Source of the DNA: an uncultured Candidatus Peribacteria bacterium
GTDB taxonomy: Bacteria > Patescibacteriota > Gracilibacteria > Absconditabacterales > Absconditicoccaceae
Length of the DNA stretch: 64,000 nucleotides
NCBI GenBank assembly: GCA_964430205.1
Contig: CAYSER010000002.1
Span: forward strand, 17,207 to 81,206
Reading direction: 5' to 3'
This document shows, one piece after another, positions 3,286 to 40,211 of the stretch. The translations under genes were made by a program, and so were the position numbers. Position 1 is the stretch's first letter. Each line of letters opens with the position of its first letter. The notes under the pieces are model-generated. The model saw nothing but the letters and a program-made list of their open reading frames with translations, did not search any database and was not told where the DNA came from.

Positions 3286-3332
3286 CATATTCTTACTCCA
3301 TCATTTATCTCATCAGCGTTTTGGCACTATCC

Positions 3333-4829
3333 ATGAAGAAACTTTTCGCTCTCCCTATCGTGCTATGCCTACTCATCGCATCCATGAGCAATGTTTCTTT
3401 TGCCCAATCTTCAAATACTCCACCTGCAGATGATCTTACGGACGCCACATTTTGCTCTACCCAATCTTCCGTGTGTGGAACCGCGCCCGAACAGTTTACC
3501 CAACTGATGGATTTCGTGAGAGAAATGAGCAATGCTATCAGGACCATATGAACCCAAGGCGAATATATGGGCCAATATATCAATCCTAACCGATTCAAGG
3601 GAGATCAATTCAACCCTCCGCAAAAGACCTTGCTCGGAAGGGTCGCTAGGAATATCTCACAGAAGGCCCAGTTTTCCATAGCCAGCGTAGCGATTCTCTC
3701 TTCGCCGACCAATGTAGCCGGGCTCAAGGACATGATTTGATGACTTACCTTATTGGTCAAGAATCGTGTCTTCCTCAGGGATGCTTCCATCGTTCAAAAA
3801 CTTGAATCCGCTGTCAATGATAAGAAATACGAGCTTGGTCTCTGATGAGGACGGTACGCTTCCGTCAATCAGGAGAACCGTGCTGTCATGCAGGGCATTA
3901 TCCAGAAATACATAGACAAGTGAATATTGCTTCCGTGATCTAGCTTGAATGACGGTGTACTGTACAGCAATATCACTTCGTTGCTGACTCAGGTCCTTTC
4001 TTCGGCCAAGACATTCCTCTACTTAGGTAGTACGAGCCAATTCGATGATATATCTAGAGGTTCTTCCGATCAGAATATTGGTATATACTTCTCTTCGGAT
4101 GCTATCCAGAAGATGGATCGCAGCTATGATTGCGCAAAATGACCTAATTATATCTGCAGCAAGCAGCATACCAAGATCAAGCAGATGCTTACTGTCTTAT
4201 GAAAATCTCTTACCAACAATTTCTCTTCTTCGATAAAGCTCTTCAAGGATGCTAACAAGAGGATGGGGCAGCTCTTCTCTCCCAACACACCAAATGAGTC
4301 TTTTACCCAGAGAGAGAATGATTTGCTCAGGTCCATGTACGGAACCAAGAAGATCAGCTCGGGCGTGTTTTTGGATGTCAATTGACTTCAACAAGCGTGA
4401 TCTGATCTCAAGGATGTCCGGAAAGACACCAAAAATATCTGAACTGCAGTAGGGCAGTTTGTCTCCGGAACCATGATACAACCCGTATCGCAGCTCATTA
4501 CCTATCGATCATTGCCCAAAAACCTCAAAGAGACCGTAGATATGCTTCCTTCCAAAGCCTCGCTATCGGCAGATACCTTATTGACTACCGATGTCACCAA
4601 GAGCATCGATCAGTATCTTGTGGATGTCTTTTCTGATGCTCAGGCTGATCTGGATCTGGTTAGCATGTCTGAGCCTATCTGAGTGACTCAGGCCTTCTCC
4701 GTACTCGGCAATCAGATCTCTGTGATCGAGAACGATATCATAGGAGGAAAAGATATGGACGATAGCCTTATCAAGAACTTGTGAGTCGCATGCGAACTTC
4801 AGTGCGGCGGATGATGATCTTGTCGATAA
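3333..4829 (+). CDS. secreted hypothetical protein (498 aa)
   Basis: Joins track ORFs 3321.., 3945.. and 4473.. (same frame, TGA-only interruptions, checked codon by codon). MKKLFALPIVLCLLIASMSNVSFAQS signal peptide. Ends ...VACELQCGGGGSCR at TAA 4827..4829. Confidence 0.7.
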
Positions 4830-4862
4830 TATCTTTTTTATTTCGATCTTCCCTTACTTGTG

Positions 4863-5978
4863 ATGCATCTATGGAAAATACAGAGATTAGTGCTTTGGGC
4901 TGCAGTCGTTGCCGGTCTGTATTTTTCGTCTGTCTTCGCTGTCAATTTCTCAGCAAGCAATCTCAATCTTTCGACCGCATCAGAGCCAGACAGCGTGAAT
5001 GTTATGGTGCGTGATTTCTGTTCCAGTGTCATGAATTCTAGCGCTTTCAAGGAAAGCGGGTTCGTCTACAATGCTCAGCAATCTGTGTTCTTGCATCTGC
5101 TCTGCAGGAATTTTGGTGCGAGCTCATCATATTTCGCTAAGGAGGATATCTATTTCCAACGTTTGGATTTCAATGCGCTCTGATTCCATGATTACGTCAA
5201 TGAGGATGGCTCCGTCAATGATCTCTGCAATCCCAACTTCTTCAAGGGCGATTGCGATCTTGCAAGGAATATCCCTAAACTCTTCGATGGCATCATCAAT
5301 GATTATATCAACATGAAACAGCCGAATATCTATGGCCTGACCCAAGAATTTATTTCAGATTCCGATATCGAATACCAGATCAATCAATTCTCCTCATGAT
5401 ATTTCGACGGACTACAGCTCTGCGGCACTGATACTCCTCGCTATCCCAAGACCTGCAAGATGATGAAATCCACCTTCAAGGATGTCCGTAAGGCCTTGAA
5501 TGATGTCTCTATCCTCAATGTCAGCGGCGTATTCTCGATATTCAAGGAGAAATCCACAAAAACATCATGCGATACGGTCACCGTAGCCACCGATATCTTC
5601 TATTGCTGATTGTATGGCAATCCATTGTCCCGTCTGGTTTCCTTCACCAATCTCGTCTACAATGAGCTTTTCTATTATCGTCTCTTTATGTGATATTATC
5701 TCTCTATGCTCCAACGGTATCCAGGTATCTTATACCAAAACACCTATATGAAGGACTATACCGATATCCAAAAGACATTCCTCACCCAATATGCCCGATC
5801 CCATGAGGCGCTTTCGTTGAGTTTGAGGATGATGCGCGATACCTATATCGCTTTCCCTTTCCATGTAGGGTTATCCATGTATCATGAGGATCTCTACGGC
5901 TTGTGAAAGTCATTGTCATCTCTTGTTTCCCCTATAGATACTTTATCTGATAAGCTGAGAAATGTGCAGAAGCCTTAA
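4863..5978 (+). CDS. secreted hypothetical protein (371 aa)
   Basis: Joins track ORFs 4860..5183 and 5706..5906. MHLWKIQRLVLWAAVVAGLYFSSVFA signal peptide. TAA 5976..5978. Overlaps the next gene by 17 nt. Confidence 0.7.
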
Positions 5979-8139
5979 TAGGACAGTAGCATCTCTAATC
6001 GCGCTTATCGGCCTCGGTTCTTCCGTTTTTGCCGCTGATTTTTCCGATGCATTGATGCAGACTAATGCACAGACATCATCTATAGAGAACCTCTTCAACG
6101 GCAAGTCGGTAGTCACTAACCTTTATTCCAAGGCATTGAAGGTCGTCAAGGACAAAGAGACTTCTTCCACTTCTCTGGCCTTCGATAAGCTATTGGCATA
6201 TTTTTTCGATTGTCCTGCACTCACCCAAAAGGATATCATCAATATCCTCTATAATTCAAACTTCTCTTTCAGGAACACTTTCTCGCTCCTGCTGCCTTCC
6301 TCTACGAAGATTCCTACTTCCGGAGATATCTCTTCTACATATAATAAAATCTATGCATGCAGACATATCCAGAATCCCACAGTAACCGATATCGACAATA
6401 TCAATACTGAGGTCAATACCAGATATCTCGCTCTCTATGCCAATGCTTTCACCATCGCTTCCCTCAATAACGCTAATTTTTGATCCGATCTGTTCCGGAA
6501 TGGGACATTGGATGATAGCGATTTCGATCTTCTCTACGATATCAATCAGATCGGTAAGATTTTGTTCGATTCTTTCAAGGAGACTCCTCAATTGCTCTAT
6601 TATAGGTTGCCTGCGTCGCAACAATCTTCTTCGCAGAACAACAATACCCCATCATCTGCTCAGCAGAACGCTTATCAATTAGGATGAGGTGGATGATCTT
6701 TTGGCGGCTCTTCATGACTCTCTGGCTGATCTTCTTCTCCGATATCAACATCAACATCATCTACCACTACTGCGATTACCACAGCGACCGCTACTGCTTC
6801 AAGCAATGCTCCAGCCTTGGATGATAAGGAAGTCCAGAATTTCATTGCCAAGACCAATCCTGGTTCGTCTTCTCAAACATCTGTTGCAGGGCTCTATTTC
6901 GGTAATCAATGCTTGGTCTCTGATACTCCCGCTCCCATCGTTTCGGAAGAGACTGGACTGATCATGACTCCAGAAGAGTATCTCTCAGGTATCAGCAACT
7001 TCATCGCCAATGCCAATATAGACGATGTCATAAATACCACGCTCGTCAGCCAGTTCCATACCGACAATCCGAATCCTCCTTCATCGACTTCTTCTGTCTC
7101 GTGATATACTGCTCAGGCAAATGCGTATGTTGAACAGGCATACAACCAAACTCCTATCGGCACCTGCGAAACCACCTGTAACGATAAGCCCTTGATCGAG
7201 CAAGCTGCATGCGAATTGTCGTGCACCAAGCAATGCGTCCAAAAATGTTCCGATACTTCCAAGGATGCTATGACTTCCTGTGTATCTGTGTATGCTACTG
7301 ATGTGGCTGCATGCAACCAAGTATCTGCGCTCAAAAAGCCTCTCTGTCTGGCTTCTGCAGTAGCACGCCAAACTTCATGCAAGACACAAGCGACTACGGA
7401 TAATCTGCTTTGCATCTCCGATTGCACCTGTGTGCTCATCGCTTGACCCAATGGTCCAGGCCGGCAGAAGATGGAGGACATGTTCCGTATCAAGTTCTGT
7501 AAGGTGCCTGTACAATCCGTATCAATGACTCAACAGAAAAAAGTCTACAGCATCCAAGCGATATTCCAAAAGCTATCAGATTTGCTCCAGAGCCTTAAGG
7601 ATAGCTGACAGATGATCAAGTACACTAAAACGAAGGAATTCCTCGATAGCAATATCAAGATCAAGTTCGCTGATAATTTCGCCTTCAAAATCCTGTTCTG
7701 ATTTAAGCCAGTATTTTCTCAGAAATCGACGACCGTCAAAGCTCAGGAGCAGGCACAAGCGAATATCGATGCTAATATAGCCGTTCTCAATATGAATGCG
7801 AGTGCGCCGACCGCTGATGACTATACCAAATATATCGTCATAGCCGATCCCGCTACGAATGCCGCAAACAAGGAACCGGCTACCACCCATGAGGATATCC
7901 AAGCTAATATCGATAAATTCATGATAGCTGCAGAGAAGATGAAAGAAAATGAGCTCAGCGATCAACAGATTGATGGCGTTATCGTTTCCTACGCCCAGAA
8001 AAACAAGATTATCTTTATCAACAACATGATAGAATTCCTCAAAGATAATCAATCCTTTCTCAACAATTTCAGTGCTACCTTGCTCGATATGAATACTATG
8101 GCTCGTGAGCTCAAGACCAAGATAGAGAATTCAAAATAA
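5962..8139 (+). CDS. secreted hypothetical protein with a Cys-rich module (725 aa)
   Basis: Joins 5962..6483, 6817..7104, 7192..7446 and 7792..8139 (frame checked line by line; only TGA interrupts). MCRSLNRTVASLIALIGLGSSVFA signal peptide. 13 Cys in about 95 aa around 7160..7443, including an AACELSC motif. S/T-rich linker around 6740..6800. Confidence 0.7.
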
Positions 8140-8151
8140 TCTAGAGAAACA

Positions 8152-8625
8152 TTATGATAAGAATGCGCTGGTCAGCAGTTTCATGATCGCATATGAGAAC
8201 GCTATCACCAAGACCCCTATGATTGCGTTGGTGATCGCTGATTTCCCTTTTGACATACCCGAAGGATTGAAGATGCTGCTTGCATACAGGTATCCAGCAT
8301 AGATGATCATCACCACACCGATGAAGATTCCGATCTGTGAAAGGAATCTTACGAGATAAACGATGTAATCGAGCAAAGTATCCCATGTCATGATCCCTGA
8401 TGCCATCTGAGCTCATAAGTCTCAGGAGAGTTCAGAAGCCTGTTCGTTGTAGGATTTCCATACATTTCCTCATGTCTTACCGACCGCTTGAACTGCTTGC
8501 GTCACATTCCCTCCGCTAGCTGCTTCAGGTATTATTTCAAAATCATTCGTAGTCTGCTGCGCGAAGGAAGAGAACGGTGCGATGAACATACCGAGTATGA
8601 AGAGGATCAGAAGGAATCTTTTCAT
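8152..8625 (-). CDS. T4SS-type (TrbC/VirB2-like) pilin-like small membrane protein (157 aa)
   Basis: Track ORF 8152..8406 extends upstream through three TGA to ATG 8625. MKRFLLILFILGMFIAPFSSFAQQ signal peptide, then two hydrophobic helices flanking SGMSKGKSAI. This architecture is typical of the small T4SS pilins abundant in CPR genomes. Confidence 0.65.
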
Positions 8626-8661
8626 AAGGAGAGGAGAGGAGGTAAAATATTGAAGATAGTT

Positions 8662-9510
8662 CTATTTGCTACATGTCTTGGATGCTGGTGCCTGCTGGAT
8701 GATGGTCTGGAACATGTCTTTCACTTTAACGATCAAGTTCCATAATGCCATCAGTTTTTCCTGGACGAAATATTTCCTGAGGTATGCCTTGGTCCCTTCA
8801 TCGAAAAGCTGATTGGACTTCTCTATCATCATCATCTTGGTATAGCTTGTCTCTTTATTGACCCTGTTCTTTGCGATATTTTCGCATGCATTCATCAAGT
8901 TTTTCCCGATCAGTGTCTTATTGTCGTTGGGAACCCCATCATAGATGTCTTTCATTAGCGTGCATATCGTATCGTATTTATCTCTCAACGATACGATAGC
9001 GATGCCTTTGTTATAATTGTTCTTGATGATATTGATATCCTCGTATTGATGCAGCGTCCGATATCCGGTATAGAGTTTCTGGATTTCACTCGCTTGCGCT
9101 CCGCTCGCCATTTTCGCGATCTCATTTATCTTCGTTCTCCGTTCGAGTCATGTAGGATCAAGACTGAGATTGTAGGCGAGTCAGGTGATCCCGTCCAATC
9201 TTCTCATCGCTACGTCCAAGAGATGGTCGAAGAGGAATTCACTTGGCGGATAATACATTTGCGGTAGATTTCCGGTATTGTCTTTGGAACAGTCCAGCAT
9301 GTCCGGCTCCTTACAGCAGTGCGCCTTGAGATTGATGAGTGCCTGTTTGAATGCTTCTACGGGAAGAACATCTTGGTATCCTTTTGTTGCATATATTGCG
9401 ACTTGCTGATCTATGTTCGTTCATAGCACCACATTGCAATCGTTGGCTGCGAATGTCCGTCATATGCCTATCAGCCCTATGGCTATCGTTCAACATGTTT
9501 TCTTCATCAT
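8662..9510 (-). CDS. secreted hypothetical protein (282 aa)
   Basis: Track ORF 8662..9111 extends upstream through TGA codons to ATG 9510 (MMKKTCGTIAIGLIGIGRTFA, signal-like). TAG stop. Starts 39 nt after the giant-gene stop. Confidence 0.65.
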
Positions 9511-9549: not shown

Positions 9550-12500
9550 TTATTTTTGCTTGATATCCAAGGTCAGCGTGGTTATGGACTGCCCTGATGG
9601 CTCTTTGACGATATATCTTGGCTTTTTTGCTGTTGCATCGAAGAGATATTCTCCTACAAGCGAGCTTGCATACATACCAGGGATGTAGATCGCTCATGCG
9701 GTGTTGGTATAGAGCATGCACTCATCGTTCACATTCTTGATACAATATCCTCCGTCGAAGTCGCCGAAGTTCCCTTGCGTCAGATGCATTTGCTGGTATC
9801 CGATCACATTCGGATCCATCTGGATCACCACTCATTGGACCGGCAATACTATTTGGAAAAGCCTAACATTCTTCCTCATATCCACGAGCTCGATCACCGG
9901 TATATGAGTTGCAAAGCTCACCTGGAGCTTGACCGTATTGGCATATGCTTGATTGATCGTGATCTCTCCTGTCTTCGGATCGATCTTAGCGATTTCATCG
10001 CCTTGCGCGTTATAAAGTCCTATGTCGCTACCCATCGTGAATATTCATCCGGTGATGATGGTCTGTTTCGGCGTCAGATCGAATCCTCCAGATTGATTCT
10101 TATTCGTTCATCCGAGATTCTTCCAGATACCGTTCCTCAATCTCTGGAAGATGACCGTTCCTTCATCCAGATCATGGCTGATCTTCGCTATGATGTCAGC
10201 GGTCTTTTCCCCTGTCTTCTTCACATCGATCACTTCGATATCAGGGGAGAGGATATTGAGCGTTATCGTATCCTTGGTTACGTTATCATTCTGGTCTATC
10301 GCGATGAAGTCGTAGTTTTGCTCTGTCGTGCCGGTAAAGAATAATCATCCTATATCGATGGTTCACGTCTGTGAAGTATTGTCTTTTTCTATGATCGTCT
10401 GTCCATCTTTCTGAACTATCATCTTCGTGACAGCGACATTGTCTGTCCGTATCGATTTGAGCGTATAACTGGTGTTGATGTATCCTTCATGCATCAGCCC
10501 TGTGCTTAGTGCTTCTTGTGTACTATTTCTCCGCAATGTTACCTCGCCGATCGGCGCTATCGTATCACCAAGATTTTGCATGCCGGCAACGGTTTGATTG
10601 GATCGTGGCGATGATTTGGTCAACAGTTTCAATGTTTGCTGCTGTCTTGAAGAGAGTTGATCAGAGGTATCAGACAATGTTGCAATGCTTACGTACAATC
10701 GTTTCCTCGGGAGATCATTGAATGTTACGTTGAGAGTGTCTTGTTGAGGATCATAATATTCCACTTCCAGGATGTCATTACCTAGTTGGCTGCTGATACG
10801 ACTTTTGACCATATTCTCATCTACGGTCAGCAATGTTCCGGTACTATTGCTCTCTCTAGGCAATACTACGATATATTTCGGCTCCTCTCATCGTCAGAGG
10901 ATGTCCCGTAGACTCTTAGGCGTATCTTTATCGTCGATCTTATTGCTTACCTTGATGATGTATCCATCTGTCTGTTCGCCCAATGCTGTGCTGTTGGTCC
11001 ATGAGAGCTGGAGCGTGTCGAATGTCTGTCCCTTGGTGGCGAAATTCTTCGGTTCCTTATTTCTGTCTATCACCTTGAGCGTGATGTCGTTGATCTCCAA
11101 GTATCCATATGCATCAGTATTCTCTCTCAGCTGATCCAGTGATCTGATATATCGTTGGTTCGGATTCAATCGTGTCGATGGATGCTCCATCTCGTAGCTG
11201 TAGAATTTGCGGTAATGCGTCACTATGGAATTGCCTCCTTTTGAGAGATGTTCTGCTTCCTGTTTTGCATATTTGACATAGATAGCGTTCGCATCGTGCA
11301 TCAAGATGTCGGTATGGCTATCATTGTTGAGATCGATATCGGTCATATATGTCGCTTTCACGTTCTCGATATGTTGGCTTGAGCTTACCGTATTGACCAT
11401 GCTCTTCGTCATTCAGCTATAGGATTCTACAAATACGCCTTGGATATATGCTGAGATATCGGTCGTATATTGCGTCTCGGTAGATTGAGAACAATTCGTA
11501 CAGGTTCATCATCCTTGTGCAAGCAACGGTTTCGCTGTATCCGTATATGCGAGTAACGCTGTATCAATCTTGTCTTTCGTCTCTTCCAGATATTTCTTGG
11601 ATTGTTTGTACGTGTTAGCCGACATATTCAATTTTTCTGGACCGTCGTTGTTGACTGCGTCCAGGTATCCTTGAACCATCCTTTTGTTGAGATCCAGATA
11701 TGTCTTTGTCGGATCCTCTTGCGATTGCAGGATATTTTTGGTCGGATCGTCCATCGTCAAGAGCGGAGCGCTGAACGTTGCACTCGTCGTCGTATCGTCT
11801 ACGAGAACTATCGGATCATTTTGTATGCTCTTGATGAACGAATCGTACTGCTTCACTCTCTTTTCTAACTCCTTATTTTCCTTGATTTTCTGGTCTATCA
11901 TCGATTTTGCTGCTTTTTCTATCGTTTGCAGCTGTTGTGTCGCTGGCAACACGGTCGAAGTATTCTCTATGGTAGCCAGGATCTTGCTTACCCTGTCAGA
12001 CATCTTCTTGTCTGTCATCGTCTTTTCCTTGAATTGCAGGAGTCCTTGTTTCAACTCTTTGAAAGCATCAGCGTACGCTATCATGCCGCTTTCTGCATCG
12101 GATTGATGGTATCCATCAAACTTCAGGTTGATATTCTGATCCAGATTCTCGATAGCATTGAGTCCGCTCATGATCGCATTGTCGTTCGCTTGCTCTGTCG
12201 CTCGGTTGACCGCTTTGTTTGCAGGGCTTTCTACCTGTTTGGATACGAAGCTGTTCGTAGTTTGTGCAATGCTATTGAAGACATCATAGACGCCGTCAAA
12301 GTTGAATTTGAGTGTTGTATATGCGTCCAATCTATAGTCGAATCATTGGAGCGGAGGATCCTTGAATTTTGTCGTCATATCGAAGTAATCAAAGACAGGG
12401 ACGTTCCGTGTCCTTTGGGTTATCTGCTCTATCTTTCCTTTGACTCATTTCTCTCCCACCAATCCGATCCCTCATTTGACGATACAGAAGATCTTCCCTA

Positions 12501-15500
12501 TGAAATCAGCGACTTTGAGGACGGCGTTAATCTCCGGTATGATCTTCGGTATCTTAGGTGCAGGAGGCAGTACGGGAAGATCCATCTTGATTGTTGGTAT
12601 GAATGATGGCGGTTCCGGCAATGTCGGCGGTTCCGGAATCACTGGGATCGTCGGAAGTGAAAGACTCTTATTGAAGAATCCAAGGTCCATATCCATACTG
12701 ATCTCCGCTTCCGGCGGTTCGGGAAGATCAGGCAGCTGCGGCAACGCGATCTTCATGGTCGTGAAATTGATCTTCGGCAATACGATATCCATGCCGAGCT
12801 CTACATGAGAGATATCCATATAGATGTTCGGTATCTTGAATGCTGGTATCGGGAATATCGGCAGCTTTGGGCAGAGGAATGAGAGGCTACAGGAGAATGA
12901 TCAATAATTGTCGTTACTGCATTTGCTGCACTTCTGAGATCGGTTCACAGAGAAGTCTATGATCGCCTGCCATGTCTTTATCGCTCAGACAATGAGGACT
13001 ATCGCATCCACATATTGAGAGTATCTCGTCGCGTTGACACTGAAGAAATTATTTATGCCACCTACGAAGTTTGAAAGCAATGAGGAAATCTCCGTCAGGT
13101 ATCTGTCGGTAAGGTGTGTCCGTTCGTAGAGCTGGTTAGGGAATTGCTTGTATTTCTCCAGGACGTTGATGTTCTGTTTGACGGAATTGATAACCCCTGC
13201 GGTATTTTCCCTGAATGTCAGGAAATTGTTCAATGATCCTGCTGCGCCTGAACATTTTTGGAGCTTAAGTACAACAGCATTTATCGCATCCAATCTTGCT
13301 TGTTTATCTTGTGAGAAATTCTTTCCTTCTGCCTTTTTTTCATTCTCAAGTCCTGCCTGTATGATCAACCGATAGGGTAACGTTCCGATCTTGGTCGATG
13401 TATTCTTGGCGTTTATTCAGATATTCTTCATGTCAGCTCCCATTTCTTTCCGTGATGTCCCTGTTCCCTCCGGCAATGCTAGTATCCTATCCATGTCTTT
13501 TATCTGATGCTCTATCCGATCCTTCTCTCCATTACCCAAGGCTGCATAGGTCGGCGATGCTTTTTCTGCCACGAGCATATCTTTCATCTCCTTGGCTTCT
13601 TTCTTGTCGGTCGTCCCGCACATTGCTAACATCTCATTGATGATGCTTGTCCGATCTTCCAGGATCTTCGCATTCTTATCTATCCGCATCTTGAGATAAC
13701 TCTGATACTTCATGATATCATCGCTCGTGATCCCCGGAATCTTGATGTTGAGATCTTTGGTGTCGATATTGATGAGCGGCACTTCCTTGAACATTGATTG
13801 GATCGCTTCAAACGGATTGTTGCCGATCTGTTTTGAGATGCTGCTGATGTTTTTCTGGGATACGTATTTTTTCCGATCTCATCCGGTAAGCGTTTGAATA
13901 TATCCGGCTTGCTTATCCTCAGCGTTGATTTGCTTGTATGTCTCAGAGAGATTGCCGATCTTATCGAATCATTGGAATACGGTTGTCAGGTCAGGCAGAT
14001 CCACCTGGATCGTCATCTTAGTTAGATTGTTCTGTATATAGGATATCTGCCTGGTCATCCGATCCTGGACCACGCATTTGACTAGACCTTTAGTCTTGGC
14101 TCCCAATCTCTTGAGCGTTATTGTCTCTCCTTTCTGGATGTCATATCCTTCATAATCCTCTCCTTCTTGTGGCTCTTCAGACACGCTTCTCGGCTCCATA
14201 TCCAAGGAGATTAGTCCTCAGAAATTTCCTTGCGGTATCGCCGCTGCATACGAAGGATTGTTTTCTGAAGATCCTGCTGCTACGATTTGGAATGGTGAGC
14301 TTGCTGTATTCACTGATGTCTGGGTCTGCGTATCTGCTGCAAAAATCATTGTATTACCTATTTTCGGCGGATTGTTGCACGTTCCATTGTCGGCTGCAGA
14401 TGCCAAGCTCGGATCTATTTCTTCTGTCGCCGGTTGATTGCCTTGCGAACTTTCTTTGGTACAGTTCGTGATCGGCGGTACGGCGAAGACGATACAGTTC
14501 CCTGCTATATCTCTGAACGGTTTAGGTAGTGCTTTCCCTACGGTATATGGACCGAAACACATGGCTATACCCATACCTAAGGTCAATGTCGGCGCTATGT
14601 AAAGCCTGAATATCGATGGATAGGTTCCTCATGGAGTGCCCAGGAAAAATCCATCACTCGTTCACTTGAATGGGAATCCGAATATCCCTGGTGCCGGAAT
14701 GTATCCTACCGGTGTCGGTCATCGGTTCCCTGGAATATTCAGGAGCGGCATTCCTTTGCCTATTGTCGTGTTTAAGGTCTTGAAGACTGTATAGAGTGGA
14801 TTCGGAAGCTTCGGTACGCATCAGAAGATATGATAATCGCCTGGAGCCAAGAATGCTTGATTGAATGGCACCGGTAAGCCCGAGCATCCTCCTTTGCCGA
14901 GCGTGAATCATTGACAAAGTCCTTGCAGTGCTGAATCGATCTTCTTGGATACTTTCGCTGTAGCACCATCGATATAACTGCTTACCCCTCATAGGTTTAC
15001 TGATACTCCTCATTCCGAGAAGAGCGAAGAGAGGATGTTTTGTGCGCTTCGTGCTTCCAGGTTGTCCATGCCAGGTACGCTTGATACCTTATCTAAGCTA
15101 TCGACACTACTCAACTGATCGATGGTGGTATTGATAGATTGTTGTGTCGCTGCTTCTGCTCAACTATTGTACGTGTTTATCACCGTTTGGATATCATCAT
15201 AGATCTGTTGGTAAGTCTTTTTGGTTCATGATCTGTCGTTGAAGAGGATCCATCTGTTCTTTTGGCAGGCATCCGTCATATTGATCTGGATGTCAGGATA
15301 TCCATCTTTCTTCTTATTCTCCTTGATGATATCTGTATCTTTTACGTCGATCGTCACTGCTTGTTGTTCCTGATAGGTCGCTAGGAACGAAAAGCTCAGT
15401 GCTTCTCCCGAATTGAGATGAATGTTATCCATAACGAATTGATACCCTTCCGGAGGATTCCGATCGATATTCAATCATCAGGTATTGTCCGTGATGAATG

Positions 15501-18500
15501 ACATTTTGACTATTTTGTTGTCGCTATCTTTTCCGATATTCCGCGGTCATTGCGTTTGATCGATATAGGTCAATCGGTTATTGTTCTTCTTGGAGAGGAT
15601 AGTCGTCTTGATCACCACTTCATCACCCTGTCTCAATACTCATGAATTGATGTCCACATATTCCTTGTAGACGCTCACGGCATCGTTTGCTTCGTTGATC
15701 GGTAAATAGGTCACTTCATCTTTGGAGATCTTTTCGTAGGCAGGAGCACTTGATAATGGATTGTCCGTGAATGCTAATTGTGTCTTGCCTGCTGCTATAT
15801 AGGTATCCGTATTCGCTACCATCGATTTGATGTCATTCATAGTGGATGTCTTGAGTGCTTTGAGTTGATCTTGCGTCATATTCGCCGTCGTATCTTCTCC
15901 CTCTATATCTGTCTCTTCTTCGATACCTTCTTGCGGCATCTCTGCCCCTTTCCGGTGGATCAAGCTATTATCCTGGATGTACCGGCTGCTGTTTATCCTT
16001 GTTCAGAAGCGTTTGATGATCTTGTAGTTTCCCTGCTGCCTCATATACCGTCATGTATCGCAGAGTCCCGTTACCGATGATAGATAGTTAGCTCCTCCTT
16101 TTGAGTTCCCCCCATAGAAGATCTTGATATCATTGAGTGCATCATTGGTCACAATATCCAATATTCCGTCCTTATCCATATCATTCACAAACAGTTGCCT
16201 TACGCTGGAAAGATCATCCGGCGACTTGTTTCTCTCATTCGGTTCGCTGTTGATATTGAGACAGAGATTCTTTCCGTCTACGGGGAATACTCCTTTGTCA
16301 TTGAGATATGCAATGCCTTTGCCGTTGTTGGTGATTACCAGGATATCTTCATATCCATTTCCGTCCAGATCGCCGATCTTGAGCTCTTTGATCGGTTCCG
16401 CTATGATCATCAGCTCTTGCATATCCTTGTAGGCTTGAGTCCCTCCATAATTCTTGAGCAGCTTGACCATACCATCCGTATAGACAACGATCAGATCTTT
16501 CAACCCGTCATTGTTGAAATCTATCGGCATCGTGGTATAGATGGTCTTGTTGGGATCGGCATAGATGGTCTGTCAGATGGATGCATCAAAATCCGTTTTT
16601 GCGATCTCCGGACTTTTCTCTCTCCTTTCGAGCAACGGATCTCAGAAATTCATCAGGAACTGAGAACCGTACGGCAGCGTCGCTTCCCCTACAGTCTTTC
16701 CATCTGCGAAATTCGCGATATTTTTGAAATCGCTCGTGAATCCTACGCCAAGCAAAGCGTCTGCGCTATCCTCTATAGATGTGTATCCTTGTTTGGTGAA
16801 CGCACTATCCATCTTATAAATGCTGATGCCTTGTGCGTTGGTCGATCATTGACTGAATGCCGATGTCTTGCCGTAGGTGACAGGGTCCAGCAGTTCGATG
16901 TTCGCGCTTTCCCCTGCGATGCTCTCATTATTCCAGACTAGCATCGTACCGATGTGCTTGCCGTCAAATGTCATAGTATAGGTACTCATATCATCGATCA
17001 TCTCATTGTCTGCTTGTATGCTGAGTCTCGTATCCATCATACCTCTGTCGATATCTAGGATATCGATGCCATTGATCGTAATTTTCGATGTGGTAGCTTC
17101 ATTTCCTGTGATGACGCTATCCAACGGTTCAGGAACATATAATAGTGTCGTGCGTTGCTTCTTGAAGGTGTCTATAGCTCCCGTATCTTTTAGCGTCTTG
17201 ATTTCGTAATCCGTCATCTTGCCTAGATGCACTTTCGCTACGTCCGGAATAAAAGCCATAAATTCATTATTCTCTCTCGTTATCGTAGCTGCGTTCTCAT
17301 CAAGCGCTTGGATTTGTCATGATGAATCTATGATGTAGGCTATCTGCTTGATCTTGTTTGGATCTACCATCATCGTTGTCGTCGTCAGGAGCTTATCCGA
17401 TTTTTCCGTCAAACCGTTGATCACATTCTCATTTTCGGAAAAATATCCTCGCTGATTTCATCGGTCTGTACCGAAGAGATTGAGGTACATGATATTGAGC
17501 CCTTCTTTAGGGATCAGGCTGTCCTGGACGATGAATCTCTCATATCCTGGCACTTGATCAGTAAGCGTCCTTATATTCTCATCGATATATGCGAATACAT
17601 ATCCTTCTCCTCCTTTCCCTGTCGCAGTGATTGCATAGGTATACGTATTCCCTGTATAGATAAACTGATTAACATTACTCTTAGCAGCTCCGATAACTCA
17701 GAGCTTGATGAGCGTTCCGCTCGTCACTTTGTTGTTCCGGCTATCGACCACATCGATCGTGCCTTTACTTCCTGTCGTCGCCGTGAAATCCAATTTGCTC
17801 TTCTCCAATGTTATCACTATCGATTTCGCTTTTCATGGATTTACGGTCACGGGGATCCCGATAGGGTCTATGCCGGGAATATTGAGGGTGAGCGTATCCT
17901 GCCCCGCCCTGAAGCTTGGATAGAGTGTTATATCCAATCTGCCGCTCGTAACGAGGAAATCGCTTGCTTTACTGAAAGTCAGTTGTCTCTGCACTCCATT
18001 GATTATCTCCTCTTTCACTGTTCATGGGATCATCAATCATTGTTTGCTCGCTACATTGACTACGGTATCCAATGGCACATTATTCAGGTCCTTGACTCTG
18101 ATTGATATGCTCGGCAGATTCTCCGGCCTTATCTGTGCGATACCGCCGCTATCCGTATATTGGATGCTCTCTTCGTTGTTGGGTAAGGTGAAGAGGATCT
18201 TCGGTTGTGTTTTTTGTGCCAGATTGGTCTGATATATGACGGTATTGTTCTGGATTACCGAAATGATGCCTTTCGCTACTCTGACAGTCTTTTGTACCGT
18301 TATCCCTGTGCCTTGGACCCCCAACCTTTTTTCCCCTTCCTGAGGTGTTACGGTGATGGTCACTTTCTTATCCGTTTTGAGTCCTGTCGGTCATTGATAG
18401 ATGAATGAAGATGAGGAGAAATTATCTAAAGCGATGCTGTTGTTCCACACAGCACCGTCATAGAGTTTTCCATCTCAGCTCAGTGTGCTGATCGTGTATG

Positions 18501-21500
18501 GTTGGATGCTCTGTCATATCTGATTACCATAAGCATCTTCTGCATTGAGTATTACCGGTATCTGTGCCCCTTCCATGACGACATCTGGCGATTGTATAGC
18601 TATCTTCGCTATGGGTCATGGTAAAATATTGATGATCTGCTTCTTGATGATACAGACATTTCCTCCCGCTGGGCAGAGCTCTATCTTGAGCGCCAAACTA
18701 CCTGCTTTCTTGTCTTTCCCTATCATCATCTCGAATACCATCTGCTCTGTATTCGGGTTATAATATTCCTGGAGCTTATCGGTACAAATATTCTTAGTTG
18801 TGTTCATTCCCTGCCTAGATATCTGTATGCAGGTGTCTCCTGTTCATGAGATCTTGACGTTCACTCTTCCTACATCTTGCATCATACCGATCTTCAGCTG
18901 TGCGTTTCCTGTGTCGGTCACGTTCAGGATTGTCTTATCAACATTGATTGTGGCATAGGTATTGTATGCTTTCAATGTGTCTTGGACATTCGTCCCTGCT
19001 TGATCGATAGTCTCTTGATTATTTTCTGCACTTCGTTGGTCTCCATATTGTTTCCATTGTCCTGTCGTCATAGCTACCGAATTTTGCAGCTCTTTGGCGA
19101 ATCCCATAAACACAGGTCATTCCGCGTTCTTGAAACTTATCTGGATATCCAATGGTTTCTTCAGTACTTTCTTCGCTCGGCATTTCACGGCTTTTGCCCA
19201 TGGTGAGGAGAGCGGATTCAACTTGAACAATGATGATGTCCCATCAGTATCTACTCCTTCGCAGGTATCCACTTCTTTTTGAAGATCAGCCGAAGGTCAT
19301 TCCTCAAATGTATTCGATGGTTTCTTGACTTGTTTGACCTGTGCCGCCTGTATCTGTTGGATGAACGAAGGCGTGGATTTTGCCGAGATGTAATCTTCGC
19401 CATCGGAGTTGATATATGCTACTTCATATCCTGTCTTATTGTACACCGGCGTGATAAATTTCCCTTGATCGCTCCCTGACCTCAGGTAGGTGTTGGTGAT
19501 CTGACCTATTTTCTGGTTGATATCGAAACTATTCTTCAGCTCTGCCATATCTCCGGCGACAGTGCTTTGCGTCAATCTTTCCGGCCGTCCGATATTCTGG
19601 AAATAGAAGATCTTCGCTATCATATCAAGTTTTTGATCTACCGTATCGGCCGCGCTATCTCCGTATATCGCCTGCTTTCAGTATTCTGGAGCGTTCTTGA
19701 GCCTGTCGAGATATCCAATGAGCTGATCGATGAAATAGTCCGAAGGTAATAAGTCGTAGGTATGCGTGTTCGGATTCGCCAACGGATCAAGCTGCGCGAT
19801 GAAATCGAATTGGCTCTTGTACGTCTGATAGTATTGGAGTTTCTTGTTCTTCTGATTCTCTAGCAGCGCATTGTAGGTAGCAACCTTCTCTCTGAGATAA
19901 GTCTTGATCGCTTCCCTGATTTCCGGGATCTCTTTGATCACCAGCTTATTGCCGATTTTCTTATAGATCTCCACTTCATAGAGATTAGGATAATCAAGTC
20001 TTACCACATCTCCGCCTATGCCCTTGAAGGTGATATTCCTGATATTGTCGATTGGTCTGTCTTGGGTCGTCAGATTCATCCCTTTGTTCGTCTCTTTCTT
20101 GTCAGCATTATCGGAGACGTCGAATGTATTCATCGTCGTCTTGACCTGTGCTATTTCGCTGAACACGCTTGGTGCTGAGAATCGCGCATTGATCTCTTCG
20201 AACGGTTTCACTGTCGTACTATTATCTCATTGATATTGCTGGATCTTCTCTATCCTATCATTGATATCCGCCGCATATGCCGCGATGGAGGATATCACGT
20301 TATGTATGACTGCACATAATGGTTGATAGTTGTTCGTACAACCGCATGCGGTAGCAGGGGTTCCGCACATCTGCGATGCGTTGATCTGCTGCATCTTCGT
20401 CGTCAATGCAGTGTTGATGTTGTGCAATTGACCTACCGTGTTATAGATATTCCGTGCATGGGTGAATGTCGTCTTGAACGCGTTCACATTGGTCATGAGG
20501 TAATTGAGATTCGTGGTTATTTGATCTTTCCGCGTATTCAGGATCTCCGGCTTCTGCTTCTTGAATGCTTCGCTCTCGATGATGTTGGTGAATAGCGCGG
20601 AGGTATTGCTGATATTGAGATTGTTGAGATATTCTTGGAGATTGTTGAGTCCGTCTCTGACCTTCTCGGCTCTTTCCGACATCGCCTGTATCTTGGTCAA
20701 GTTGATGTTTTTCTCGCTCCGTTCGTTGGCTTTGTTCGCTATCTGGAGCGCATTCATGTTCGCAAGAGTGCCTGTCGTGAAATTCGCTATCTCCACCATG
20801 CCAGCATTCCCTGAGGCGATGAGCGATTTGAGATTCATCAGATTAGAGATCGTGCCTGTCATATCCATGATATCCGCACCGCTGAACTCTTGCTCCTTAT
20901 CCAGGATATCCGTCTTGATTCGTGAAAGGTCGGACATTACATTGGTATAGAACGTCAATAACGGCGCTCCGTTTTTGAACTTGTAGAACTCGGTACTCGA
21001 TATCTGATCCCGTGTCGGCGAAATATTCTTTACCCTGGAATCGATCGTCTTGTATGTGTAAGCTTTCCCTTCGCCTCCGCAGATCCCTGGACTGAATGAA
21101 TACATCAATGCTTTGCTTGCATGGATTACGTGCGAATTCGTCTGTCCGTAGATCATGAAGAAGTTGTTCTGATCGAATATCTTGGGCGCATTATATCATC
21201 GGTTAGGATGCTCCAGATCAGAATTGGTCGGTTTCTGATTCGTGAACTTGAGATCGATACCGTTCGTTTCCGGATTATCTATATATGAGAAGATATTCCC
21301 GTATTTGTTCTCTATCTTTTCCTTGACCGCAAACCTCTCTTGTTGGATGCTTGCGTATGCCTGGATTCCCACATAGGTGTTGCCGCTATATTCTGGTGAT
21401 GCTATTGCTTTGGATCATGCGATGTCGAAGAGCGGGAATTTAGCGTTCTTGTAATCGTAGTTCTTCAGTGTCTGTGTCTCTGAATCCATGCTTAATGGCG

Positions 21501-23205
21501 ATCCTCATCATCGATATCTCTGGCTAAAGTCAGTCAATGTTTCGCATCATCATTGTTTCTCTTGATCATTGATATAACATTTGTTCTCATCCTTGGAATC
21601 ATCCGCTTTCCATGTTTTTTTCCATCGGATGCAGTAGCCGAAGAGATGGAGATTGCAATCCCTGTTCCATAAGCTTTGCTTATTGATCTTGAGCTTATCA
21701 TAGAGCGCGACCTCATCCTGTGTCGTGTTGATATCATACCCTCTATTAGCTTCTATCTGTGTCGAGAATATCTTATAGGATCATCCTATGGATTGTCCGG
21801 TCTTGCTGATCGATTGTCAGGAAAATGTTGTAAGGTTCTGGAACGTACCTCTATATATGCTCGTATCTCCTGCCGATGTGATCTGATTCGCATTCTTTCC
21901 GAAATAGTAGTTCTGATAATAATCATATTTGCTCCGGATACATTTCCGCGGTATCGGCCATACAGAAGGCTTTATCTCGCCCTTAAAATCCAGTTCTTCC
22001 AAAGGGATGGGGATATCCATATAATATTTGTCCTGGTCGATCTTCTCGTTGAGCTTGCTTTCCATGTAGTCGTTCATCTGGATCAGCAATGGCTGGACAT
22101 TATTGTCCAGATCTCCCACTAGCCGATTATCCTTCTGCACCATCTTATCAGTGACGGAACTGTAATCGGTGAAGGTTTCTCCATCATTGGTCTTGTATCG
22201 CCTTGCAAGTCAGCCGACATTATCTTTCACTTTAGCTAGGAATTGCGAACTGATGAGCCCGTCATAGGATTTCAGCATCTCTTGCGTCGCTTTATTGAGG
22301 GTGAGCGTAGGCATCTTGGATTCTATCTGTTGCGAGGATTCTTCTGCTTCACTATTCCTGGATGCCATATTGTCCGCGTATGCCTTGAGATCAGGATCCG
22401 ATACGTTCTGTAGATCATTCTTGAGATTGCTCGTCAAATCCAATGATCCTTGATTGTGCTCGTCCTTGAGGGTATTGAGCAGCAGATTGGTGAATCTGTG
22501 ATATCCGATATCTTCGGCGAATGTTAAGCTGTTTATGTAGTATTTGGTATTTTCCGGGATGAAGTATTTCTTGAGTCCGATGAAGTCCTCATACCGTATT
22601 GCTTTGTCGATGAACTTCTTCGGATCGCTGACATAGGATTTCAGCTTCCTGAAATATTGGTTATATTGTGTAGCGGCATCGAACTTGATGATACCGTGCC
22701 ATATTTCTGCTTGGCCGTTCGGATTGTCGTTGTACACGAAGAATTTCTTGTTCGCATCATAGATGAATTGCTGATGCTCGAAATCAACGTATGGGAAAAT
22801 GCTCGGATAGATGAATCAATTGTTCTGCACTACTGGTAATGGAATGTTTCCTATGAGCACGGTACCCACCAGTTTGGAGCTTGCATCCTTGAGCCCTTCG
22901 AAATACATATTCTCTAGCATCTGCGAGATTTCATGAGCTTTGAGCGATTTCGTATCTATGGGCAATACGATAGCTTTGCTGTTGGCTATCTTGCCTTGGA
23001 TATAGTCGGTGGTGTATCGTACGAGATTCGTTTTTATATCCTCATAAATATCCTTATCTACAAATACCGCAACTAAATTTGTCGTGTTCGGATTCTCTGC
23101 TGCATATACGTCTCTTCGATTGATATATGCGCTATTCTGCAGAAGATAGGACATTCCGTAGAGTATAATCAGCATCCAGACTATGATTTTTTTCGAGATA
23201 TTCAT
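9550..23205 (-). CDS. giant secreted/surface protein, about 4,551 aa, with FG-GAP/VCBS-like repeats and a Pro-rich segment
   Basis: All 23 minus-strand track ORFs from 22816..23205 down to 9832..10035 have ends congruent 0 mod 3. I walked every gap codon by codon. Every interruption is TGA (about 60 in total) and there is no in-frame TAA or TAG until TAA 9550..9552. N-terminus MNISKKIIVWMLIILYGMSYLLQNSAY (signal/anchor). DFNNDGLKDLIV, DLDGNGYEDILV and DMDKDGILDIVT at 16051..16530. LPxLPxPP-type tract at 12472..12819. Confidence 0.8.
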
Positions 23206-23464
23206 CAGGCGATCTATTCCAATGCTAAAGCATTTTTTTTACTACAAAAATATCTGACAAATCAGTATAGCCAAACGGCAAGTAAAATAAACGAAAAATA
23301 GCGATTTTCGCTATTTCCAAATTGGGTTTTTGTGATACAATAATGCTCGTCTTCGACTCGTGATGAAAACTCACTGCGTTCGCGATAAAAATTGACTTCC
23401 GCTTCGCGATACAAATCGTGTAAAACAGCTTAAAATAAGCAAAAATAGCGAGTGATGTCGATGA

Positions 23465-24921: not shown

Positions 24922-27024
24922 ATGAATCAACAACAATCACCATCACAACCACAACCACAACAACCACAGCAGCATCATTCTCAATATCCAAAGCCATCCG
25001 TTCCTAGAGCACCGATGTCATCATCCAAGCCATCATCATGACCTGTTGCTCCTGTAGCTTCACAACCGGTGAAGGCATCATCCTCAGTGCCTATGCAATG
25101 AAATCTATCTATCGATTTCAGCAAAAAAAACAATCTGAAACATGATAGTAAGTCTTCTTCAAGAAAGCCGGTACCGTCTTCTAAATTAAAAATGTCTTCC
25201 GAAGCATTTATTCGCCAGGAAAGAGTGTCGTCGCTTGCGGGAGTCAAGGACCCTAGGAAGCTCATCAAGAAAGACGAGATCCCTGTAAAAGTCGGTAATC
25301 TTATCGGTCTCGAACAGGTCGGACAATGCATGTTCATCGAATACAAAGACGATATCATTATTGTCGATGCCGGTATGGAATTCGCCGCTAATGAAGAGCT
25401 CGGTGCGGATTATATCATTCCAGATATCGCCTATCTCAAGAAGAATAAGAATAAGATCAGGGGTATTTTCATCACCCACGGCCATCTGGATCACGTCTGA
25501 GCCATCAAGAATATCATAGAGGATCTCTGATATCCTATCATCTATACGACGCCGCTAGCCTTGGGTATCATCAAGAAGACGTTCGACGACCCTAAAAAAG
25601 CGAATACGATCAAATACAAGATCATCAATCCGGATATAGATCTCATCAAAGCGTGATGCTTTACGGTAGAATTCGTTAGGGTCAATCACAATATCCCAGA
25701 AAGCATGGCACTTGCCATCTATACGCCTAAGGGTATCATCTTCGATTCATGAGATTTCAAGATCGACCATACCCCTGCTATCGATAGGCAGACTGATCTA
25801 GCAAAGATTGCGAGGATCGGTACCGAGGGTGTGAAATTATATACTGGAGATAGCCTATGATCTCAGAATCCAGGTCGGGCTAAGTCTGAAAAGGTCATTG
25901 GAGAATCTATCGATTCCCAGATCAAGAATACCAAATGAAGGATCCTTATTGCAACATTCGCTACGAATATCGGTAGGATCATCCAGATCGTCACGAGTGC
26001 TATCAGATACAATAGGGTAGTCTTCATCTCAGGAAGATCCATGATCAACAATATCGATATCTGTCAGCAGCTCGGATATATCAATGTCCCTAAGGGCATG
26101 ATCCGCAAACTCGATAATGATGTAAACACTATGCCTGCAGATAGAGTGCTCGTCCTTTGCACTTGAGCACAAGGAGAGGAATTCGCTGCGCTTACTAGGA
26201 TGTCCAGAGGAGAACACGCACAAGTCACGCTCGGAAGGTGAGATACTATCCTGATGTCGGCTTCGACTATTCCTGGCAATGAGATGGCTACCAATACCAT
26301 GTTCAACAACTTGCTTGCAAGAGGTGTAGAACTCATCACCAACAATGAGATGGATGTCCATACGAGCTGACACGGATATGCTGAAGACCATAAGCTTTTG
26401 CTCAGTTTGGTCAAACCTCAATACTTCATGCCAGCATTCGATGATATGACGCATAGGTATGCACACAAGAAGCTTGCTCTCGATATGTGAATCCCTGATG
26501 ATCACATCATCATGCCTCAGGAGAACGGTTCAATCATCGAACTCTATGATGATATCGTCCTCATCGGAAACCAGAAGTTGAAGCTGGATACTATTCTTAT
26601 AGACGGAAAGTGACAGTGACATATGTCTGGCGAATATGTTATCAAGGCTCGTCACATCATGGCGCAGAATGGTATCGTCGCTCTTATTTTCAAGATAGAC
26701 ACCAAGACCAACGATCTAGTTGGTAATATCCAGATTGAATCCAGATGATTCGTCTATTCGAGCGAGGTCAAGACTATCCATACCCAGATCGTTGAATTCG
26801 CTAGAGCTAAGTATAATGAAAACCACAAGAAGCGCTTGGACGTCAAAGAAAATCTCAAGCAGATTAAGGAAGATCTCTGAGGATATATAGAAAAAATCAT
26901 AGGCAGGGTACCTATGTTGATGCCGATGTACGTCTATATTAACAGGGAAGCTCAAGGCACTGATCTTCCTTCGGATGAGGCAGTGGTCGGTATGACTTTG
27001 GAGGAACAAGGATATGAAGACTAA
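24922..27024 (+). CDS. rnj: ribonuclease J with a Q/P/S-rich N-terminal extension (700 aa)
   Basis: Frame checked line by line; 16 TGA and no TAA/TAG. GIFITHGHLDHV-G(TGA)-A metallo-beta-lactamase motif. VHTS-G(TGA)-HG beta-CASP motif. TAA 27022..27024. The start at ATG 24922 is less certain than the body. Confidence 0.85.
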
Positions 27025-28996: not shown

Positions 28997-30223
28997 TTAT
29001 TCTTGGATGAAATGAAAAAAAATCCTGATACTATCTGTATCTATCTTGTAGGACTTATGAACTATATCCACCATGAATGGCGATGGGACCAAAAAAAGAT
29101 CCATCCTTGCTTTGAGTTGTCTTTGGATCAACTTCAATGAAAGATATTTCCCGATGATGGCGAGGAGCGTGATCGGATTCTTGGTAGGCTGAGTCCTGAT
29201 GAAGTTGTTGAGCGTGAAAGGTGTCTTGACCTGTCTTTCCTGTTGCAATGAACTCGGGAATGGTGAAAAATACCCTAGATCATGGAACATCATCCGCTTC
29301 TTCGCTTTTGCGTTTCTGCTTGCCCGTATCGGCGCTCGACCGAGGTATCTCATGACGCTATGGTATCGGATCAGGTCAGGCTTGAATTTTTCTATCTTCC
29401 TTTGGAGTTTTATAGTTTCCCGGAAATTGCCTAATCAGGTGATTATGCCAAGATATTTCGCAAATTTGCCAAGCGGTCATCCCGGCACTTTACCTCCGCA
29501 GAGCTCAACCTCGTATCCATGCTGTTCCAACAGGGCTTTGACGTCGTTGATGTAGGTCTCTATGCCTCCTATCCTATTGATGAAATCCGAGACTATCAGC
29601 ACTCTTTTTGTCTCTTTTCCCGCTAAGGTATAGAACTTCATGAGCCGGCTTTCTTTGCTGAAACGATCAACCGACGAAACGCTTAAACGCTTAAACGTTC
29701 TCTCTTTACCTATTATCCTGATAAGATTATAGAGTCTGGTGCCGGTCGTGTGGCCGGATTGGTGAGTAAGGTCGAGCTTCGGATCTATGAATTCTTTGAG
29801 CCCTCCCTTGGCGTAGCCGATAGGCGCCAATCCCCACTGAAGTGCATTCAGCGCAGAAAGTCCGAACGATTCGAGACATTCCGATGGCATGAGTGCGTAT
29901 TGGTAATTCCCGATATATCTCTTGATAGTCTTGAGATCCTGTCGTCAGAAATAATGGATGTTCTCGTTCTCCGCTGCTAATTCCTGTATTTTCTTTTCTC
30001 TGCTTCCTGACCCGAAGATGAATACCTCAAAGGCGGGTTTCTTCTTATCTTTCTTGAACAGCTCAATCATCTCGATGATGCCATCGATTCATTTTTCGGG
30101 TTCTAATCTTCAGAAATAGAGTAGTCAGAGCATCGTATACAAATAAGGTAAATTTATTTGATTGATATCCAGTATCTTTCTTTGAAGTGTCCTTCATGTC
30201 GATATTCCGAATCTTGGATTCAT
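28997..30223 (-). CDS. GT-B (GT4-like) glycosyltransferase ORF with apparent C-domain then N-domain order; possibly a fused remnant or pseudogene
   Basis: One open frame (TGA only). The upstream half carries C-domain motifs (YFGRLEPEKGIDGIIE...; PSECLESFGLSALNALQWGLAPIGYAKGGLKEFI). The downstream half carries N-domain motifs (KRVLIVSDFINRIGGIETYINDV...KPDLIRYHSV). There is an internal ATG at 29641. The 5' 120 nt overlap the GNAT gene as encoded. Confidence 0.45.
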
Positions 30224-40126: not shown

Positions 40127-40164
40127 GTTCTTTGCGGGAATAGATAAAGATTTTGGGTTATCTC

Positions 40165-40193
40165 ATTATACCGGCAAACGCTTTTTTTGTCAA
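40165..40193 (-). promoter_or_regulatory. perfect consensus sigma70 promoter (TTGACA-17-TATAAT) for gene 35972..40126
   Basis: Minus strand: TTGACA (40193..40188), 17-nt spacer, TATAAT (40170..40165). The -10 ends 38 nt upstream of ATG 40126. Confidence 0.65.
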
Positions 40194-40211
40194 ATTTCGA
40201 GCCACTTTCTT

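Follow-up and report, generated by a model that had tools for sequence, protein, structure and literature searches.

An intact 4,551-codon gene in an Absconditabacterales genome encodes a giant protein of predicted surface location, a candidate backbone of a host-contact apparatus

We analyzed a 64,000-nucleotide stretch of DNA (contig CAYSER010000002.1), which we call the window. Its largest gene lies at positions 9550..23205 of the minus strand and consists of an ATG, 4,550 further codons and a terminal TAA. We refer to this gene and its product of 4,551 residues as the giant. There were 63 in-frame TGA codons, and no in-frame TAA or TAG was present before the terminal TAA. The initial annotation had described a single open reading frame (ORF) with about 60 TGA codons; its frame and coordinates were right, and the TGA count is now exact. 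The remaining five frames of the same interval contained 47-156 TAA or TAG codons apiece, and the closest in-frame TAA 5' of the ATG is 12 codons away. The second-longest run free of TAA and TAG in the window had 1,397 codons, and in 20 mononucleotide shuffles of the window the longest such run did not exceed 358 codons. The content of guanine plus cytosine (GC) at each codon position and the use of purines at position 1 were even from one end of the giant gene to the other.

Several alignments bear on the genetic code. The RelA/SpoT gene of the window (59901..62120) has a TGA at a glycine that is conserved in the PDB homologs 6yxa and 7oiw, and one of its CGA/CGG positions is aligned to a conserved tryptophan. 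A TGA was also found inside the HGHxDHxG motif of the RNase J gene (24922..27024). For the giant, glycine was the majority residue at 52 of the 63 TGA columns of the ortholog alignment described below. The gene contains 22 CGA and 27 CGG codons (49 together), 4 CGT/CGC codons and 14 TGG codons. We tallied the residues aligned to its CGA/CGG codons, leaving out orthologs which themselves use CGA/CGG at the same position. Tryptophan made up 42% of these residues, compared with 41% for the TGG codons, and arginine was outside the five commonest residues. These alignments indicate that the organism reads TGA as glycine and CGA/CGG as tryptophan, and all protein analyses of the giant were performed with this code. 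The code, together with homologs found in genomes labelled SR1 or Absconditabacterales, supports the assignment of the source to the Absconditabacterales (SR1).

Reassignment of CGA/CGG to tryptophan in Absconditabacteria was described by Shulgina and Eddy, and most of the genomes described by them have a GC content of 0.26-0.38 (PMC8629427). In the window, the ratio of CGA/CGG to TGG was about 3:1, both in the giant gene (49 vs 14) and in 14 other genes (54 vs 18), and the GC content was 42.5%. The reassignment is at a more advanced stage here, and the GC content is higher, than in most of those genomes. Standard pipelines break or corrupt the giant gene: code 11 cuts it into more than 60 pieces and code 4 puts tryptophan at 63 glycines. 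Table 25, which the initial annotation recommended, is right for TGA and puts arginine at the 49 CGA/CGG positions that should be tryptophan. Because codes 11, 4 and 25 each misread the gene, public copies of the family are mostly fragments or mistranslations.

Since TGA encodes an amino acid in this organism, it cannot end the gene. We used the N-terminal 1,291 residues as a query and obtained nine homologs (30-68% identity), all of them apparently truncated. Their contigs are short, in keeping with the truncation, and one of the nine has the label Candidatus Absconditabacterales. Queries with C-terminal parts gave two further homologs. One of these (locus L002) has 2,726 C-terminal codons colinear with residues 1604-4523 of the giant, and is followed by homologs of the window genes 8662..9510, 3321..4829, 4860..5978 and 5962..8139. 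No exact match of a TGA-free fragment of the giant was on record. Further, one genome per species (GTDB representatives) was scanned using three aligned sequences of the protein's core. We found 46 loci, in metagenome-assembled genomes labelled SR1, Absconditabacterales, 'Peribacteria' or unclassified. The whole gene was present in 38 of the 46, each time as one ORF of 3,770-4,963 codons without TAA or TAG and with 35-236 in-frame TGA. The 38 full-length orthologs and the window protein were colinear from end to end, with occupancy above 0.75 almost throughout, and all 38 begin with an N-terminal leader of the same type. Long invariant motifs of the core, common to the ortholog group, are present in the giant as well (LPVPFNxAFLxPG; CFGPY; QAIIDxSxxWxxKCxxCxxDxY; LPxLPPAP; CIVKxxIGLVGE).

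Two related loci differ from this picture. Locus L003 (2740..9300, JGI 3300033146) is a low-GC copy of the giant in which two or more frameshifts were found, along with a segment that has ten stops in frame; the copy is a pseudogene, or else was poorly assembled. We considered and rejected a natural split into four genes there, as the junctions are frameshifts and stop-riddled stretches. Locus L050 (GCA_964546505.1, 1..26427) belongs to a distant relative, in which the standard code applies and the N-terminal domain has a gene of its own (822 residues). This gene lies just upstream of one of 4,808 residues, which has a true TGA stop and SLH domains. Genes for PilB, PilC and pilin directly precede this gene pair.

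Self-comparison of the giant (BLAST) detected no internal repeats at E<=1, and repeat-driven mis-assembly is therefore unlikely. We also considered a paralogy of the giant with the partner proteins or other large proteins of the window, and rejected it, as BLAST found no similarity between them. The initial annotation had taken the region for one giant gene, and the ortholog comparison agrees with it. From these sequences, we conclude that 9550..23205 is a single intact gene and not an assembly artefact, and that a giant ORF is the ancestral, conserved state in the order.

The protein begins with a hydrophobic leader (residues 1-36, 23098..23205) that has a conserved 'KVYA|AEN' site and is kept in all 38 orthologs. 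The leader is predicted to act as a Sec signal peptide or else as a signal anchor. The giant contains 38 cysteines, about 30 of which are shared by 80% or more of the orthologs, mostly as nearby pairs. Because the cysteines are conserved, mostly as pairs, we infer that the giant is extracellular and that the conserved pairs probably form disulfides outside the cell; export would proceed by Sec, by means of the leader. The signal/anchor sequence was found just as the initial annotation gave it, and the exported product proposed there is in line with these data. Hydropathy analysis detected no clear membrane span besides the leader; there were two borderline amphipathic stretches (residues 3398-3420 and 3565-3583).

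We divided the rest of the protein into modules; the mean identities given are to the window protein across the 38 orthologs. A conserved N-terminal region (residues ~40-750, 20956..23088, 44%), delimited on the conservation profile, is followed by a variable helical region (residues ~751-1040, 20086..20955), which with 23% is among the two least conserved modules. The other is a hypervariable, indel-rich insert (residues ~3201-3330, 13216..13605) with a mean identity of 16% and an occupancy of ~0.5. An FG-GAP/VCBS (integrin-alpha-like) region with three DxDxDG loops is located at residues ~2101-2400 (16006..16905, 53%). The C-terminal region (residues ~3901-4551, 9553..11505, 41%) is beta-rich and contains a fourth FG-GAP-like loop, DIDLNNDSHTD.

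The three DxDxDG units had been reported by the initial annotation, and Pfam identified them as FG-GAP_3 (PF13517, residues 2229-2290, E 8.6e-8, 33.1 bits vs a curated cut-off of 26.9). The consensus of 39 sequences gave FG-GAP_3 (E 7e-10, 39.8 bits) and FG-GAP (PF01839, E 5e-6, 26.6 bits vs a cut-off of 22.1). Nothing besides FG-GAP was found by Pfam in the window protein, and NCBIfam gave no match to the consensus. An immunoglobulin (Ig)-like, beta-rich region was placed at residues ~1501-1900 (17506..18705) by consensus and homolog matches. Backing for the Ig-like stretch of the initial annotation is indirect only: the consensus matched Invasin_D3 below threshold (E 0.07), and Invasin_D3 and Glyco_hydro2_C5, both Ig-like, were found in the distant homologs P0126 and P0156 at the equivalent of residues ~1500-1800. 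In a similar way, a DUF11-like beta-sandwich may be present at residues ~2500-2650 (15256..15708). Pfam did not match DUF11 directly in the window protein, and detected it (E 1.4e-5) in P0126 at the equivalent of residues ~2510-2600.

Constraint appears to be strongest in the core of the protein (residues ~2740-3660), which begins with a Gly/Pro/aromatic-rich segment (residues ~2740-2960, 14326..14988, 50%), with the motifs GLCxGF..GG..LPVPFNxAFLxPG, YPSxxRxYxxPTLT..GxAxCFGPY and GNCI. The initial annotation had described this segment as unusually dense in TGA. This was not borne out, as TGA made up 6 of its 23 glycine codons (26%) vs 63 of 313 in the whole gene (20%). We rejected TGA enrichment as a mark of the segment, which is merely rich in glycine. 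The best-conserved module is a Cys/helical one (residues ~3331-3470, 12796..13215, 61%), in which a long helical hairpin is followed by CxxCx9Cx5C; its identity was 79-91% in close relatives. The next module (residues ~3471-3660, 12226..12795, 60%) combines the proline-rich LPxLPxPP tract, found as first reported, with a KIxCIVKxxIGLVGE..K..EQxTQR segment. There was no match to the core in Pfam, NCBIfam or PDB, nor among solved folds. About 95% of the length of the giant is without a Pfam or NCBIfam model.

The initial annotation had proposed profile hidden Markov model and structure-based searches, and both were run. Pfam found FG-GAP, as given above. A PDB sequence search with the whole giant gave nothing usable, and one with the core profile gave no match. 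The N-terminal third gave one weak PDB profile match, to XaxB (22.7 bits, E 1.7e-4, residues ~1090-1210), in a helical, compositionally biased stretch outside the conserved core. We treat it as a lead only. Structure models were made by AlphaFold2 (AF2) on homologs of the giant as stand-ins. The N-terminal model (a substring of P0003, 13 sequences) was poor overall, with a mean predicted local distance difference test score (pLDDT) of 40.8; its first ~80 residues were moderately confident and formed a beta-alpha-beta-alpha-beta unit. The core model (P0015, residues 2660-3760, corresponding to residues ~2700-3700 of the giant, 65 sequences) reached a mean pLDDT of 58.8 and a predicted template modelling score of 0.44. 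It was confident in a pair of neighbouring helices, 46 and 61 residues long (block-mean pLDDT mostly 78-96), and in beta-hairpins and other helices, while most of the Gly/Pro-rich segment had low confidence. A Foldseek search of the core model against the PDB returned noise only (best E 2.2).

An exhaustive HMMER search with P0010 as the query returned 290 proteins with E<=1e-3, including 44 with E<=1e-30. The most widespread piece was the equivalent of residues ~3330-3480 of the giant. We considered whether this Cys/helical module of ~150 residues also exists as small independent proteins, and rejected it, as the short matches are of the length that pieces of giant proteins would have. Thirty matches were 3,286-6,066 residues long, and the closer ones aligned over almost the whole giant; P0015 shows 35% identity over 3,792 residues of the giant. 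The distant matches (21-34% identity) had a normal content of glycine and tryptophan. They share islands with the giant in the same order: the N-terminal domain, FG-GAP, the Gly/Pro core, the Cys/helical module and the Pro-rich module. Two homologs, P0062 and P0156, have in common with it the N-terminal domain, FG-GAP, the Gly/Pro-rich core and the Cys/helical core. The family is recognisable, by sequence, in more distant genomes of the Gracilibacteria type, where homologs are 3,300-6,066 residues long and several end in SLH domains.

We scanned eight of the distant relatives for SLH, and five (P0090, P0126, P0131, P0138, P0160) had C-terminal SLH domains (E 1e-15 to 1e-27). These are the domains of S-layer and wall proteins of monoderm bacteria (PF00395), and the relatives carry one to three of them. 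The protein is therefore expected to be tethered to the cell's own wall in those organisms. In contrast, SLH was found by Pfam neither in the window protein nor in the Absconditabacterales consensus.

Proteins of this kind have been deposited already. MCF7835358.1, MCD5380636.1 and MDD2487531.1 of Candidatus Gracilibacteria are true homologs of the giant. The deposited names are 'VCBS repeat-containing protein' or 'hypothetical protein' [Candidatus Gracilibacteria bacterium], and 'uncharacterized repeat protein (TIGR01451 family)'. For the Gracilibacteria homologs they are automatic, come from a match of ~60 residues to FG-GAP/VCBS, and carry no assigned function. By sequence, the giant is a member of this uncharacterised family of giant FG-GAP/VCBS proteins of predicted surface location, spread over Absconditabacteria and Gracilibacteria.

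Giant proteins are also known in Vampirococcus. Its ten longest proteins (1,392-4,163 residues) are predicted membrane proteins, mostly with interaction domains (DUF11, integrin and fibronectin among them), and were said to 'probably' serve host recognition and fixation (Moreira et al. 2021, PMC8080830). They and the window giant are from the same bacterial group and agree in size class and in predicted membrane or surface place. The longest one in Vampirococcus lugosii, VAMP_16_20, has 4,163 residues and is named 'hypothetical protein' (PMC8080830); it is likened to the giant by description. That paper gives no family definition, conserved core, synteny or experimental test for the Vampirococcus giants. 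In groundwater Gracilibacteria, VCBS repeat proteins were found in metaproteomes and classed under adhesion (PMC11452946). Our literature search found no paper that defines the giant family, its core or its gene cluster. The domain organisation, which the initial annotation had called essentially undescribed, is indeed so; the same cannot be said of the protein itself, as relatives are deposited and the Vampirococcus giants had been proposed for attachment.

We compared the giant with other large surface proteins. It has the DxDxDG calcium-loop-like motifs of integrin alpha and FG-GAP/VCBS beta-propellers (PF13517, PF01839) and matches them above the curated cut-offs. Unlike in a seven-bladed propeller, only 2-3 repeats were found by sequence (~5% of the protein), and the rest of the architecture is unrelated. 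The near-identical tandem arrays of repetitive giant adhesins (RTX/LapA/Bap-type, tandem Ig-like arrays) are absent. The giant also lacks the C-terminal LPXTG and hydrophobic segment of sortase-anchored proteins; its end reads ...SITTLTLDIKQK. Among alpha-helical pore-forming toxins of the XaxAB/YaxAB/ClyA type, the only match was the weak one to XaxB. The logic of SLH proteins, a large exported protein held on its own wall, probably applies to the giant by analogy. Classical S-layer proteins are much smaller than 4,551 residues.

Gli349 and Gli521 of Mycoplasma mobile are very large, non-repetitive surface proteins, encoded beside smaller partner genes and dedicated to a gliding machine. Mycoplasma mobile has a reduced genome in which TGA is reassigned and encodes tryptophan. 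The likeness of these proteins to the giant is an analogy; they come from another lineage, serve another function (gliding), and are read with another meaning of TGA.

The genes next to the giant were analyzed as well. A co-oriented partner gene (8662..9510, minus strand) lies 39 nucleotides downstream and encodes a secreted protein of 282 residues with 8 cysteines. In about 40 of the 46 loci, the gene immediately after the giant is a homolog of this partner. On the plus strand there is a conserved neighbour set: a gene for a TPR membrane protein (1789..3285) and a trio of genes for secreted Cys-containing proteins (3321..4829, 4860..5978 and 5962..8139). Homologs of the trio and of the TPR gene adjoined the pair of giant and partner in about 20 loci, with the three-gene block in either orientation. 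The synteny and presence across relatives, a comparison proposed earlier, thus extend to the neighbours. The four secreted Cys-containing proteins of 1789..9510 have 282-725 residues. Pfam detected only TPR among the genes of 1789..9510 and nothing meaningful in the consensus of four partner proteins. On the other side of the giant, ~90 nucleotides upstream of its ATG, a hairpin followed by a T-run (AAATAGCGAAAATCGCTATTTTT) is located at ~23296..23320 (minus strand). It looks like a terminator, which would isolate the transcription unit of the giant from upstream.

Some observations were made elsewhere in the window. A glycosyltransferase family 4 gene (28997..30223, minus strand) has its domains in reversed order, with Glycos_transf_1 (residues 34-148) before Glyco_transf_4 (residues 218-402); the enzyme may be permuted, or else the ORF may have been delimited wrongly. 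The product of 33802..35598 (minus strand) has a C-terminal YkuD-type L,D-transpeptidase domain after ~230 Lys/Glu-rich low-complexity residues and a hydrophobic segment. Three consecutive genes at 35972..44680 (minus strand) encode proteins of 1,384, 906 and 330 residues, partly membrane-associated and without a Pfam match. ARAGORN found no tRNA or transfer-messenger RNA genes in the 64 kilobases.

We lean, with modest confidence, towards reading the giant as the structural backbone of a cell-surface apparatus through which these epibionts contact their host. A conserved machine would fit the giant better than a variable, host-specific adhesin does, because it is colinear across the order, has no repeats and shows the strongest constraint on an unannotated core. 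A typical host-specific adhesin would differ in each of these points; in the giant the best-conserved part is not made of binding-type domains. Following Sec export through the leader and formation of disulfides by the cysteine pairs outside the cell, the giant would stand as a long scaffold on the surface of the envelope of the bacterium itself. In the relatives this scaffold would be tethered by the C-terminal SLH domains, and the window giant would be held by its leader or by partner proteins. The scaffold would display an FG-GAP module of the beta-propeller type, Ig-like domains and a DUF11-like domain. The core is probably the site at which the partner proteins assemble, or else may engage the envelope or a membrane. 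For an epibiotic lineage, attachment to a host is plausible as a role of the giant.

Several points weigh against this proposal. Binding to a host and location on the surface are predictions from sequence. Neither SLH, LPXTG nor a clear transmembrane anchor was detected in the window protein by Pfam and hydropathy. The structure models are weak, in the N-terminal part (pLDDT 40.8) as well as in the core (58.8), and the latter has no match among solved structures. The conservation across the order would fit a housekeeping envelope role without a host just as well, and SLH tethering of the distant relatives fits a surface-layer scaffold as well as an adhesin.

These last points lead to the alternative that survives best. 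The giant could be a structural protein of the cell's own envelope (an S-layer or wall-associated fibre, or a scaffold for envelope integrity or division) with no specific role in host recognition. The SLH domains of the distant relatives are a hallmark of S-layer and wall-associated proteins. Every sampled relative has the protein, in colinear form, which would be expected for a core component of the envelope, and the giant is without the repeats and hypervariability of typical adhesins. We regard this alternative as doubtful, though worth serious attention. The window protein has no SLH, and its FG-GAP, Ig-like and DUF11 modules are typical of ligand binding. Its size is far above that of typical S-layer proteins, and the variable inserts (residues 751-1040 and 3201-3330) would allow lineage-specific surfaces.

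Two further ideas concern the core. A candidate module of roughly 900 residues is made up of the Gly/Pro-rich segment and the long helical hairpin, together with the CxxC...C...C cluster and the LPxLPxPP tract; known proteins gave no relative of it in sequence or fold. It is conceivable, and in our opinion rather unlikely, that the core is a new contact-dependent module engaging envelopes or membranes, which together with the four co-conserved secreted partners forms an apparatus that docks Absconditabacteria and Gracilibacteria on bacterial hosts and extracts their cytoplasm. The other idea is a contact-dependent, membrane-active predation device, in which the Gly/Pro segment and the helical hairpins insert into or perforate the host envelope and give access to the host cytoplasm, the rest serving as a stalk for reaching and binding. 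It would agree with the hydrophobic, Gly/Pro/aromatic-rich nature of the best-conserved region and its amphipathic stretches, with the two long core helices, with the weak match of the N-terminal third to XaxB, an alpha-pore-forming toxin, and with the report that Vampirococcus degrades the membrane of its host to feed and shows no visible bridges (PMC8080830). We consider such a device improbable. The XaxB match is low-scoring, lies in a biased helical region and is outside the core, and the fold search with the core gave nothing below E 2. No toxin or lytic-enzyme domain was found by Pfam in the giant or by Pfam and NCBIfam in the consensus, and the SLH-anchored relatives suggest a resident surface protein and not a delivered one.

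An artefact (mis-assembly, a pseudogene, or adjacent genes that seem fused because TGA is ignored) might be argued from the broken contig L003, the separate N-terminal gene of L050 and the many database homologs truncated at contig ends, but is very improbable given that TGA is a sense codon, that 4,551 codons contain no TAA or TAG where the other frames contain 47-156, that 38 independent assemblies have the same colinear single ORF of similar length, and that there are no repeats to mislead an assembler.

In summary, this work provides a definition of the family, by 46 loci, its core motifs and a partner gene, together with the boundaries of its modules and its variable and constant regions. 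Our results put the giant forward as a candidate backbone of the surface apparatus by which Absconditabacteria such as Vampirococcus and Absconditicoccus would grip their hosts and feed, because it is the largest gene of the window, conserved and colinear across the order, exported by prediction and clustered with genes for four secreted proteins.

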